Source of the DNA: Escherichia coli
GTDB lineage: Bacteria > Pseudomonadota > Gammaproteobacteria > Enterobacterales > Enterobacteriaceae
NCBI RefSeq assembly: GCF_045037415.1
Contig: NZ_CP173438.1
Length of the DNA: 64,000 nt
Direction: 5' to 3' (one strand)
Notes under the pieces: model-generated
The model's input: only the letters and a program-made list of their open reading frames with translations
Databases searched by the model: none
Told to the model about the DNA's origin: nothing
Shown here: one piece after another, positions 38,134 through 41,564 of the stretch
Numbering within the stretch: the stretch's first letter is position 1
Layout: each line of letters begins with the position of its first letter
Position numbers and translations under genes: made by a program

Positions 38134-39156
38134 TTAAACCTCTGTAGAGCGGTTTCCGCTGGGTGAGTTATGCCTGTTGAAAAAATCAACGATAGCGTGG
38201 AGCGCGACTGAGCGCATTGCGTCCTTTTCAAAAAGGATCTCATGGTACGCACCTTTAATTACCAACGGCCGTCCTCCTTCGACAGGATGGCCCGCAGCGG
38301 TGCGTAGTTCACAAAAACGGTCGTGCATGCGGTTATCCACCACGCGTTCCTCTTCAGCTTGTAAGAGAAGCGTTGGCGTGGCGTCATCACCCGCACCGGC
38401 TAACACCTGTTCGCCAGCCAGAATACTTTCGCGTACCCAATGGTAGGTCGGCCCACCGACGCGAATCGTTGGGTCATCAGCATAGAAACGTAAGTTACGT
38501 CGATATCGCTGTCTGCTGTGGGTCAGTACGTTGATAGCAAACGGCAACGCGCGCCAGCGCCCGGTGCCTATTGCATAGCCATCACGGAAACGTGGATGCG
38601 CTTCGGCCCAATTGAGGATCTGCCGTGCCATAAATGACGGCATACGAATCACGATCCCAAACATTGGCGCAGTTAGCGCAATGGCGTCACATACACCTGG
38701 ATGGCGTTGCAGAAATAATGTGGAGATCGCACCGCCCATCGAATGTGCCAGTATATAGCGTTTACGCCACGGACCGGGCTGAACCTCCTGTTGCCAGAAT
38801 GCCGCCAGATCATCAACATAATCATTAAAGCGATTAACATGCCCGAGATGTGGATCGGCTAACAGGCGACCGGAACGTCCCTGCCCGCGATGGTCGATGA
38901 TTAAAACATCAAACCCCGAATGGAACAGGTCGTAGGCCAGTTCCGCATATTTTACGTAGCTCTCAATACGCCCCGGGCAGATAACTACCACCCGGTCATG
39001 GTGCTGTGCGCGAAAACGGACAAAGCGAACCGGAATGTCATCCACACCAGTAAACTCTGCTTCATCACGCTGACGCCAGAAATCAGTCAGCGGTCCCATG
39101 GTAAAAGCAGCAAACGCGTTTTCTCTTGTTTCCCAGTCTTTTTGCTGCTGAAACAT
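38134..39156 (-). CDS. pldB: Lysophospholipase L2
   Basis: 340 aa alpha/beta hydrolase with HSMGG nucleophile motif, matches PldB. Confidence 0.9.
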   Translation of the reverse strand: MFQQQKDWETRENAFAAFTMGPLTDFWRQRDEAEFTGVDDIPVRFVRFRAQHHDRVVVICPGRIESYVKYAELAYDLFHSGFDVLIIDHRGQGRSGRLLADPHLGHVNRFNDYVDDLAAFWQQEVQPGPWRKRYILAHSMGGAISTLFLQRHPGVCDAIALTAPMFGIVIRMPSFMARQILNWAEAHPRFRDGYAIGTGRWRALPFAINVLTHSRQRYRRNLRFYADDPTIRVGGPTYHWVRESILAGEQVLAGAGDDATPTLLLQAEEERVVDNRMHDRFCELRTAAGHPVEGGRPLVIKGAYHEILFEKDAMRSVALHAIVDFFNRHNSPSGNRSTEV

Positions 39157-39266: not shown

Positions 39267-39887
39267 ATGACCTTAGAATGGTGGTTTGCCTACCTGCTGA
39301 CATCGATCATTTTAAGCCTGTCGCCAGGCTCTGGCGCAATCAACACCATGACCACCTCGCTCAACCACGGTTATCGCGGCGCGGTGGCGTCTATTGCTGG
39401 GCTTCAGACCGGACTGGCGATTCATATTGTGCTGGTTGGCGTGGGGTTGGGGACGCTATTTTCCCGCTCAGTGATTGCGTTTGAAGTGTTGAAGTGGGCA
39501 GGCGCAGCTTACTTGATTTGGCTTGGGATCCAGCAGTGGCGCGCCGCTGGCGCAATTGATCTTAAATCGCTGGCCTCTACTCAATCGCGTCGACATTTGT
39601 TCCAGCGCGCAGTTTTTGTCAATCTCACCAATCCCAAAAGTATTGTGTTTCTGGCGGCGCTATTTCCGCAATTCATCATGCCGCAACAGCCGCAGCTGAT
39701 GCAGTATATCGTGCTCGGCGTCACCACTATTGTGGTCGATATTATTGTGATGATCGGTTACGCCACCCTTGCTCAACGGATTGCTCTATGGATTAAAGGA
39801 CCAAAGCAGATGAAGGCGCTGAATAAGATTTTCGGCTCGTTATTTATGCTGGTGGGAGCGCTGTTAGCATCGGCGAGGCATGCTTAA
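39267..39887 (+). CDS. rhtB: Homoserine/homoserine-lactone efflux protein (LysE/RhtB family)
   Basis: 206 aa, matches RhtB. Confidence 0.9.
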
Positions 39888-40045
39888 AACTGGAATAAAG
39901 CTCACGTAAATTAATGTGCCTCGAGAGATTGTTACATCCGCGCTCGAGGCATCTCGTAATAAGCGTAATCTGTTAATTTATTTACTATTTACTTCTCTTT
40001 GTTAGTGCCAGAATGCCGCCATATTTCACCCACGGATGATGAAAA

Positions 40046-40906
40046 ATGACGGAAGCAACGACACCACATGACGCAATCTTTAAGGCTTTTTTATCCCGAC
40101 CAGAAACGGCCCGTGACTTTATTGAAATTCATCTGCCGCCTTCTTTAGTTAAACTCTGCAATCTTGATACGCTCCATCTCGAGTCCAGCAGTTTTGTAGA
40201 GGAAAACCTACGCCAGTATTACAACGACGTACTTTATTCAGTAGAGACGACGAAAGGGTGCGGATATATCTATGTGTTGATTGAGCATCAAAGTTCACCT
40301 GATGAAAATATGGCGTTCCGTATGCTTCGCTATGCTATTGCCACCATGCAGCGGCATCTTGAAGCGGGACATGATTATCTGCCTCTGGTGATCCCCATTC
40401 TTTTTTACCAGGGAAAGCGTAGCCCATATCCATGGTCAACAAACTGGCTCGATGGTTTTCCGGATCCGGACATTGCACGCGATCTCTATTTTCATGCTTT
40501 TCCGCTGGTTGATATTACGCTAATTCCTGATGACGAAATCATGCAACACCGCAGCATGGCCGCCTTTACGCTGGTACAGAAGCATATCCGTCAACGGGAT
40601 ATGACAACGCTGTTAGATAAGTTATCCCGCTTAATGATTCTGGGGCAGATGAGCGGACAGCAAATACGCATGTTGATAAACTACATGGCGCTGGTAGGTG
40701 AAGCACAGGATGTACGAACATTAGTACATGGTCTGGCACAACGAGTGCCTCAACAAGGAGAGGAACTGATGACTTTAGCGGAAGAACTTCGGCGCGATGC
40801 CCTTCTCAATGTCGCAAAAGCCATGCTACAGCGTGGCTTTGATTTGCAGTTGATTATGGAAATGACCGGGCTTTCTCAGGAAGACCTTTATCAATTGCAA
40901 TCCTGA
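40046..40906 (+). CDS. Rpn-family recombination-promoting nuclease (YhgA-like, PD-(D/E)XK)
   Basis: 286 aa; N-terminus MTEATTPHDAIFKAFL and the D...VLIEHQS nuclease core are characteristic of Rpn/YhgA proteins. Confidence 0.75.
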   Translation: MTEATTPHDAIFKAFLSRPETARDFIEIHLPPSLVKLCNLDTLHLESSSFVEENLRQYYNDVLYSVETTKGCGYIYVLIEHQSSPDENMAFRMLRYAIATMQRHLEAGHDYLPLVIPILFYQGKRSPYPWSTNWLDGFPDPDIARDLYFHAFPLVDITLIPDDEIMQHRSMAAFTLVQKHIRQRDMTTLLDKLSRLMILGQMSGQQIRMLINYMALVGEAQDVRTLVHGLAQRVPQQGEELMTLAEELRRDALLNVAKAMLQRGFDLQLIMEMTGLSQEDLYQLQS

Positions 40907-40909
40907 TGT

Positions 40910-40940
40910 TATTCCCCCTGATAGCGTATCAGGGGGGAAG
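40910..40940. terminator. Hairpin between convergent rpn-like and rhtC genes
   Basis: ttccccctgata-gcg-tatcaggggggaa inverted repeat directly after the rpn stop and before the rhtC stop. Confidence 0.4.
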
Positions 40941-40943
40941 CGC

Positions 40944-41564
40944 TTAACGCGAAATAATCAAATGAATGCCAAATCCGGCAAATAACGCCCCGGCAAAACC
41001 ATCAATCCACTTCGCCAGACGTTGATAACCACAGCGCATTTGCGGCAGAGCAAACAGGCTGGCAACGACGGTAAACCACGCCAGTGTTTCGACAATAATC
41101 AACGCGAAAATGCCCCAGCGTTCGGTGGTGCCGACATTATCACCGACAAACAGCGAGAACACCGAACCAAAGTAGATAATCGCTTTAGGATTCGCGAGAT
41201 TGGTCAGTAAGCCCTTAAGAAAACTGCGCCCGCTTTTCGCCAGTTCGACTTGTGGCGCAGGGGCAGAAACAACCTCTTTTTTCAGTGCACCACGTAGCAT
41301 CTGGTAACCCATCCAGCAGAGATACAGGCCACCGCCCACCATAATCAGCGTATGCAGCCAGGCCATTTTTTCGATAATCAAATGTAGGCCAAGCAACGCA
41401 ATCCCAGCCCAAACCATTACGCCGCAGGTAATGCCCAGCACGCCCATCATCGCTTCTTTACGGGAACGACTAACAGCGGTCTGAGATACAAAAAAGAAAT
41501 CGGGACCGGGGCTCATAAGCGCCACAATGTGCACCATGGCGACGGTGAGGAATAACATCAACAT
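40944..41564 (-). CDS. rhtC: Threonine efflux protein (LysE/RhtB family)
   Basis: 206 aa, matches RhtC. Confidence 0.9.
   Translation of the reverse strand: MLMLFLTVAMVHIVALMSPGPDFFFVSQTAVSRSRKEAMMGVLGITCGVMVWAGIALLGLHLIIEKMAWLHTLIMVGGGLYLCWMGYQMLRGALKKEVVSAPAPQVELAKSGRSFLKGLLTNLANPKAIIYFGSVFSLFVGDNVGTTERWGIFALIIVETLAWFTVVASLFALPQMRCGYQRLAKWIDGFAGALFAGFGIHLIISR

Follow-up and report, generated by a model that had tools for sequence, protein, structure and literature searches.

Rpn modules, in which the antitoxin is read from within the toxin gene, represent a recently recognized toxin–antitoxin and defence design. In all five rpn genes of Escherichia coli K-12, an internal promoter and an internal start give rise to a small C-terminal protein, RpnS, which blocks the toxic full-length protein, RpnL (Zhong et al. 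2023, PMC10400941). Internal transcription starts were reported for all of these genes, and RpnA-S was lost when the ribosome-binding site (RBS) as well as M244 of rpnA were mutated (PMC10400941). Another hallmark of the family is a variable number of four-residue repeats, located 8-20 residues past the internal Met (PMC10400941). Chromosomal Rpn experiments have to date been confined to the five K-12 paralogues. Here we describe a further rpn gene, located between rhtB and rhtC in a 64,000-nt stretch of E. coli DNA (contig NZ_CP173438.1 of assembly GCF_045037415.1), which was analyzed as a whole and is called the window below. The gene (positions 40046-40906, plus strand, ATG start) encodes a protein of 286 aa and is the sole long open reading frame (ORF) between its two neighbors. 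We estimate with a probability of roughly 0.8 that it is a genes-within-genes toxin–antitoxin module of the RpnL/RpnS type, for which we infer the toxicity, the antitoxin action, the nuclease activity, the transcription start and the phage defence.

The membership of the 286-aa protein in the Rpn family was determined by comparison with family models and by alignment with its K-12 paralogues. The Pfam search returned PF04754 (Transposase_31/YhgA-like) with an E-value of 4.3e-82, where residues 6-206 of the protein matched positions 1-201 of the 203 positions of the model, while the NCBIfam model TIGR01784 (Rpn family) scored 180.5 bits versus a cut-off of 52.1 bits. This result agrees with a first-pass annotation of the window, made from the letters alone, which had proposed a 286-aa nuclease ORF of the Rpn/YhgA-like family between rhtB and rhtC. 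The models NF007361 (RpnA) and NF007418 (PRK09956) gave 345.8 and 343.5 bits, respectively, and neither reached the equivalog cut-off of 583. The amino acid identity to RpnA, RpnB, RpnC and RpnE was 49-56%, and the genes encoding these four proteins sit at other loci, which are feoC-bioH, hisP-yfcH, panD-panC and glpC-yfaU, respectively. The PD-(D/E)XK motif that the annotation had expected was recovered in the alignments, in which residues D9, D61, E80, Q82 and R92, together with the PDDEI sequence at 161-165, were invariant both among RpnA/B/C/E and among the orthologues from other enterobacteria that are described below. These residues correspond to D11, D63, E82, Q84, R94 and D165 (of PDDEI) of RpnA, the mutation of which abolished or altered activity (PMC5350276). 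As judged from its sequence and position, the gene is an uncharacterized, unnamed, sixth chromosomal Rpn paralogue of E. coli, annotated by the NCBI Prokaryotic Genome Annotation Pipeline (PGAP) and distinct from RpnA-E. No paper was found that names this paralogue or links Rpn to sequence type 131 (ST131), and the supplement of PMC10400941, which surveys the rpn genes of E. coli, may list it.

To define the predicted antitoxin, the C-terminal part of the protein was compared with RpnA-S. The phmmer search aligned residues 242-282 to residues 1-45 of the 49-aa RpnA-S chain in PDB entry 7TH0, with an E-value of 0.003 and a gap of 4 residues. In this alignment M242 (ATG at 40769; MTLAEELRRD...) takes the place of residue 1 of the crystallized chain, and it was invariant in both protein alignments, which contained 9 and 15 sequences. 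The ATG is preceded by the Shine–Dalgarno (SD) sequence AAGGAGAGG at 40755-40763 on the plus strand. Its GGAG core, which is located 8 nt 5′ of the ATG and includes Gly238's GGA codon, does not vary among 14 orthologues, which come from at least six genera, and the same arrangement is seen in rpnA, rpnB and rpnE, where AAGGAG stands ahead of the internal start. Met242 is hence the likely start of the antitoxin, and the predicted internal gene of the rpnS type (40769-40906, plus strand) would encode the 45-aa protein MTLAEELRRDALLNVAKAMLQRGFDLQLIMEMTGLSQEDLYQLQS, aligned with RpnA-S from its first Met. The precomputed Pfam annotation places PF27070 (HTH_Rpn_C) on proteins that are 99-100% identical to this one, and our own Pfam scan did not report PF27070. 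RNA structure around the internal start was no more stable than that of shuffled sequences. The idea of a toxin with an internally started antitoxin, which the first-pass annotation had raised, fits these observations once the start is moved to M242.

Further support for an internal gene was obtained from a codon-level alignment of 14 syntenic orthologues, of which a non-redundant subset of 10 was also used, and in which the conservation of synonymous sites was compared with 5000 shuffles. The mean same-amino-acid codon identity was 0.54 for the 14 orthologues and 0.49 for the non-redundant 10, with a maximum of 0.78-0.81 at codons 199-213, which was attained in 0.4% of the shuffles. A second, weaker peak of synonymous constraint lay over the SD region. 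The candidate internal promoter marked by this conservation of synonymous sites (40654-40682, plus strand) consists of a –35 hexamer CGGACA at 40654-40659, a 17-nt spacer, in which TG occupies 40674-40675, and a –10 hexamer TAAACT at 40677-40682. Among the 14 orthologues the codons AGC GGA CAA CAA, which contain CGGACA, were nearly invariant at the nucleotide level, TAAA(C/A)T was kept in all 14, and TG in 13. At the homologous position rpnA, rpnB and rpnE contain ATGACA-N17-TTTAAT. These data make the conserved element a well-supported candidate for the promoter of a short internal transcript.

The four-residue repeats were compared in the same group of orthologues. The lengths of the proteins were 286, 290, 294, 298, 302, 306, 310, 314, 322, 334 and 350 aa, all of which equal 286+4n, and the extra residues form tandem units of the xEGx/QQGI type, starting about 10 residues past the internal Met. 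The longest syntenic orthologue, that of Enterobacter sp. ENT03 (locus L041, 831-1883), has 350 aa, which is 16 units above the repeat-less E. coli allele. The Escherichia allele has zero repeat units, one unit below the shortest orthologue seen, and the inspected copies from E. coli and E. fergusonii, as well as the 16 closest protein clusters, were all 286 aa long. Since the Escherichia allele lacks a repeat, there is nothing in it for repeat slippage to act on.

The way in which such a module would work can be proposed by analogy with the described Rpn systems. The 286-aa full-length product would be a Mg-dependent, sequence-nonspecific DNA endonuclease of the PD-(D/E)XK type, toxic if unopposed. 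The 45-aa product started at Met242 would be more abundant, as it would be translated from its own RBS on a short transcript initiated near 40654-40682, at the internal promoter. This product would be equivalent to the three-helix domain at the C terminus, and it would bind and inhibit the full-length nuclease. During infection the nuclease could be released, leading to phage defence, as in the case of the plasmid-encoded RpnP2. The E. coli allele is the minimal form, devoid of the four-residue repeats. The fixed site of the gene is the rhtB-rhtC spacer, which also houses its orthologues in several enterobacterial genera, and in Escherichia the gene is an accessory cassette that has recently spread between lineages.

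Several observations weigh against this proposal. The structure model of the protein was of low confidence, with a predicted local distance difference test (pLDDT) value of 65.5, and the fold searches gave weak, non-significant matches to PD-(D/E)XK proteins; the order of secondary structure elements in the same model was compatible with a PD-(D/E)XK core. A PADLOC scan gave no matching model, Rpn models included, and the rpn cassette is located among housekeeping genes rather than in a defence island. The demonstration of phage defence is limited to one plasmid Rpn (PMC10400941). A scan with a strict sigma-70 consensus called no promoter at 40654-40682, and each of the two hexamers fits the consensus at 4 of 6 positions, which is why the element is regarded as a well-supported candidate and not as a mapped promoter. 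Additionally, the first helix of the predicted antitoxin, which is repeat-less and one unit shorter than in any orthologue, could differ in its contact with the full-length protein.

To see how the gene is placed in other genomes, the window was aligned with strains in which rhtB and rhtC are not separated by an rpn gene. The two genes are convergent direct neighbors in a K-12 derivative, in line with the first-pass annotation, and the 61-bp spacer between them contains a repetitive extragenic palindromic (REP)-type palindrome, tgtcggatgcggcgtaaacgccttatccgac, and no gene. The same REP-containing spacer is found in place of rpn in K-12 and in 88% of complete E. coli genomes. K-12 thus lacks the gene of the window at this position, and, as shown above, the gene is none of rpnA-E. 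In the window, rhtB (39267-39887, plus strand) forms the left flank and rhtC (40944-41564, minus strand) the right flank of a 1056-bp rpn cassette (39888-40943, plus strand), which replaces the REP spacer exactly, stop codon to stop codon. At the left boundary the differences start in the last codon of rhtB, at its wobble base, and in the stop codon; the two codons read GCT TAA in the window versus GCG TGA in the empty-site strains. The TAA variant of the rhtB stop was seen only together with the cassette. Over its last 45 nt, rhtB shows no difference across all E. coli compared, and the RhtB protein is the same in cassette-bearing and cassette-free strains. The right boundary is the stop codon of rhtC, where the choice between TAA and TGA also varies among cassette-free strains; in the empty-site loci L097, L099 and L100, the stop and last codons (40944-40949 in the window) are TAA/CGT, TAA/CGG and TGA/CGG, respectively. 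Neither terminal inverted repeats nor a target duplication were found at 39888 and 40943. The spacer is also occupied in E. coli SYNB1934, an engineered Nissle strain (locus L002, 4189-7907), where it holds an engineered pheP and lacI cassette, which shows that it serves as a neutral site of integration and that foreign DNA on the scale of kilobases is tolerated there.

Among 5426 complete E. coli genomes, 645 carried the rpn gene, which was located in each case at rhtB-rhtC and at one place per genome, with the cassette at least 99% identical in all 645. About 85% of the carriers have an allele identical to that of the window, and many of them are labelled O25b:H4/ST131; MNCRE44, H105 and U14A are ST131 strains. 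The remaining carriers form a second E. coli lineage (IMT16316, FDAARGOS_497 and LD67-1). The copy in E. fergusonii, which is 99% identical, is located in the same spacer. In all relatives with at least 64% identity the gene order is pldB-rhtB-rpn-rhtC-recQ, and this group comprises two Pseudocitrobacter species (80%), two Citrobacter species, Pseudescherichia vulneris, Klebsiella pneumoniae, an uncultured Klebsiella, Kluyvera, the Enterobacteriaceae metagenome-assembled genome MGYG-HGUT-00110, and Enterobacter sp. ENT03. Because all matches with at most 61% identity are located elsewhere in the genome, these data argue for an orthologous group defined by its locus and not for random insertion. 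No Escherichia species representative was among the best 80 loci in the genome collection. With regard to vehicles, PLSDB contained no match, and the phage records held only distant paralogues. Of the 645 places, one belongs to a record that is classed as a plasmid, despite the lack of a match in PLSDB.

The history of the gene appears to differ between Escherichia and the other genera. Outside Escherichia, rpn and its flanks have diverged to the same degree at synonymous sites, as vertical descent predicts, and the Rpn protein evolves faster than the proteins encoded by the flanks. Within E. coli, the divergence of the cassette between the two lineages is 0.3%, in comparison with 1.8-3.4% in rhtB, rhtC, recQ and pldB, while between E. 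coli and the E. fergusonii-like strain with accession AP027926.1 (locus L104) it is 1.4%, in comparison with 6-9% in the same four genes. The cassette is thus 6-10 times less diverged than its flanks, and the density of single-nucleotide polymorphisms (SNPs) shifts no more than about 10 nt away from the stop codon of rhtB on one side and about 90 nt away from that of rhtC on the other. The common ancestor of the cassette is therefore much younger than that of its flanks, and the cassette has moved between Escherichia lineages. Hence, the description of the gene in the first-pass annotation as inserted holds within Escherichia, but not beyond it, since the same spacer houses orthologues in other genera. 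The simplest route of movement within E. coli is recombination in the highly conserved gene ends. Given the very tight left boundary against E. fergusonii, a nuclease-assisted or microhomology route is conceivable, though unlikely. In comparison with the E. fergusonii-like copy there were 3 nonsynonymous and 6 synonymous differences, and the resulting ratio of nonsynonymous to synonymous substitution rates (dN/dS), about 0.14, indicates that the gene is under purifying selection. The inspected E. coli copies were intact except for one, in strain CUVET21-1780 (locus L102, 3159-4017), where a frameshift occurs just after the internal start; the adjacent recQ is also frameshifted, which suggests a sequencing or assembly error, and not decay.

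The recent movement of the cassette raises the question of whether the protein could serve its own transfer. The nuclease could be active in recombination or horizontal transfer, as in the original model of Kingston et al., or in a homing-like import of its own gene, rather than in a defence toxin–antitoxin module, and we regard this as unlikely. The particular form in which a site-faithful mobile cassette is assisted by its own endonuclease, which would stimulate the swap of the REP spacer of an empty site for the cassette, is improbable to the same degree. Site-specific acquisition was proposed and homing-like import speculated on for rpnC by Kingston et al., and such import would jointly explain why at least seven genera carry the gene in the same spacer, why its occupancy is patchy among species, why no plasmid or phage vehicle was found, and why the Escherichia cassette is so much younger than its flanks, with abrupt shifts of SNP density near both stop codons. 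On the other hand, RpnA showed no sequence specificity in vitro (PMC5350276), and Zhong et al. 2023 (PMC10400941) saw no sign of autonomous mobility and reported that the ends vary at other rpn loci. Moreover, the agreement of rpn and flank synonymous divergence in the other genera is as expected under vertical descent, and homologous recombination in the conserved last 45 nt of rhtB could yield the same boundaries in E. coli.

The other two alternatives to the RpnL/RpnS-type module with a start at M242 are less probable still. A reading of the gene as the decaying remains of a transposase or insertion sequence (IS), functionless today, could be considered in view of the name 'putative transposase', by which both PGAP and Pfam label the family, of its sporadic presence within E. 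coli, and of the one frameshifted copy. We consider this explanation very unlikely, as the gene is a single copy in each genome, is conserved at 99% or better in all 645 E. coli genomes, and shows the low dN/dS value given above, while the catalytic residues, the internal start, the SD sequence and the candidate internal promoter are conserved across genera, and the sole frameshift is best ascribed to assembly. The identity of the cassette as a transposon or IS was rejected, since terminal inverted repeats, a target duplication and multiple copies are all lacking. The remaining alternative concerns the antitoxin itself, which could begin at an upstream Met, giving a product of 101-116 aa. The in-frame Met codons in the C-terminal part of the ORF, to which the first-pass annotation had pointed, are indeed present as the ATGs of M171 and M186, and M171 is invariant; they are, however, poor candidates for a start. 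M171 is part of the conserved YhgA-like domain (residues 6-206) and has no purine-rich SD sequence upstream, M186 is replaced by Leu or Ile in several orthologues, neither of them aligns with the mapped start of RpnA, and both are located upstream of the conserved candidate internal promoter. A start at one of these codons is therefore slightly less credible than the transposase remnant, and M242 is the homologous start.

Apart from the coding sequence, the cassette contains several conserved or structured elements. The upstream spacer between rhtB and rpn has diverged among 14 orthologues from at least six genera, with the exception of a single well-conserved 17-nt block, GTGCCAGAATGCCGCCA, at 40005-40021 on the plus strand. 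This block includes a sequence similar to an extended –10 element, TGcCAGAAT, with TG at 40006-40007 and the hexamer at 40009-40014, and it also contains a direct repeat, TGCC-N4-TGCC. The block may serve as promoter of the long transcript, as operator, or in both roles. It was not found upstream of rpnA, rpnB, rpnC and rpnE or of 69 non-syntenic paralogues, and it was rejected as an operator common to Rpn genes for this reason. A copy matching at 16 of 17 positions, TTGCCAGAATGCCGCCA, is located 1.2 kb upstream, at 38791-38807, on the antisense strand of pldB, where the coding strand encodes LAAFWQQ. This copy is probably a coincidence, as it is coding, is present without the cassette and drifts in other genera, even though it is improbable by chance alone. 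Further downstream, a weak SD-like sequence GGATGA at 40034-40039 (plus strand) precedes the start of the full-length protein, and it is conserved as GGA(T/C)G(A/G) in the orthologue alignment.

The two hairpins that the first-pass annotation had noticed on both sides of the gene both exist. The upstream one, located 30 nt past the rhtB stop, has a perfect 9-bp stem with arms at 39917-39925 and 39943-39951 (plus strand) and a 17-nt loop. It was scarcely more stable than shuffled sequences (z –1.7), and it is kept in E. fergusonii but not recognizably in other genera; it may be a structure of the rhtB 3′ end. The downstream hairpin, at 40912-40938 between the convergent stops of rpn and rhtC, has 10 perfect pairs plus 2 and a 3-nt loop, with a stability of about –21 kcal/mol and z values of –3.0 on the plus strand and –3.9 on the minus strand. 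All orthologues have it in the same position, and 4 of the 8 consensus pairs show compensatory changes, which fits a shared 3′-end structure for the convergent rpn and rhtC transcripts; the hairpin is probably a shared 3′-end or terminator structure of the two genes. No T-run follows the upstream hairpin or, on either strand, the downstream one, and both were rejected as canonical intrinsic terminators for lack of it. A scan of the spacers for known RNA elements with Rfam, judged by E-value, gave only sub-threshold noise.

Two further observations were made at compared loci. The E. fergusonii-like AP027926.1 locus contains between recQ and pldA an extra gene (L104, 7481-7963) for a 160-aa protein with a WapI domain (PF24716), which neither the window nor the compared E. 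coli loci contain, and which represents another single-gene island two genes from the rpn cassette. In E. coli HM670 (locus L015, 1841-2008), a partial 'transposase' pseudogene is annotated directly after rpnC, and it is probably the extra stand-alone RpnS copy (rpnC-Ss) of Zhong et al.

The sixth paralogue is absent from K-12 and present in most of the sampled genomes of the pandemic ST131-type lineage. With 45 aa and zero repeats, its predicted antitoxin is the simplest possible, which makes it a convenient natural minimal case for probing the role of the repeats, while its syntenic orthologues, with none to about 16 extra units, provide comparative support for the candidate internal promoter and the start site. 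The sharp difference in age that separates the cassette from its flanks illustrates cleanly how a single-gene island moves within a genus.

The comparison with the described Rpn systems and with the nearest relatives places this gene within a known design. The syntenic orthologues share with it the spacer, the orientation, the 17-nt block, the candidate internal promoter and SD sequence, and the position of the downstream hairpin, while they differ in having 64-80% amino acid identity and in exceeding the E. coli allele by one to about 16 four-residue units, and in that their rpn genes are as old as the flanks, in contrast to the much younger cassette of Escherichia. RpnP2, for which phage defence was shown with its plasmid-borne LS module, belongs to the same family and has the same genes-within-genes design (PMC10400941), but the rhtB-rhtC gene is chromosomal and found on no PLSDB plasmid, and a role in phage defence is ascribed to it by analogy only. 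The closest K-12 paralogue is RpnB (YfcI), with about 67% DNA identity over nt 16-558 and 55-56% protein identity; it differs in its locus, hisP-yfcH, in its presence in nearly all E. coli, and in having another C-terminal domain with repeat-type residues. In comparison with the RpnA (YhgA) LS module of K-12 (PMC10400941; PMC5350276; PDB 7TH0), the identity is 53%, and the score of 346 bits with the RpnA equivalog model is below the cut-off of 583; the site is rhtB-rhtC instead of feoC-bioH, in a position empty in K-12, the predicted RpnS is 4 residues shorter and has zero repeat units, and the upstream region is distinct, with its own conserved 17-nt block. On the other hand, the two have the same two-domain layout, the same catalytic residues and PDDEI sequence, an equivalent internal Met (M242 here and M244 in RpnA) with an AAGGAG-type SD sequence ahead of it, and a promoter-like site about 90 nt upstream of this Met, and both are single-gene islands between conserved housekeeping genes. 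The current understanding of the Rpn family is unchanged by the sixth paralogue, which represents this known design and not a new system.

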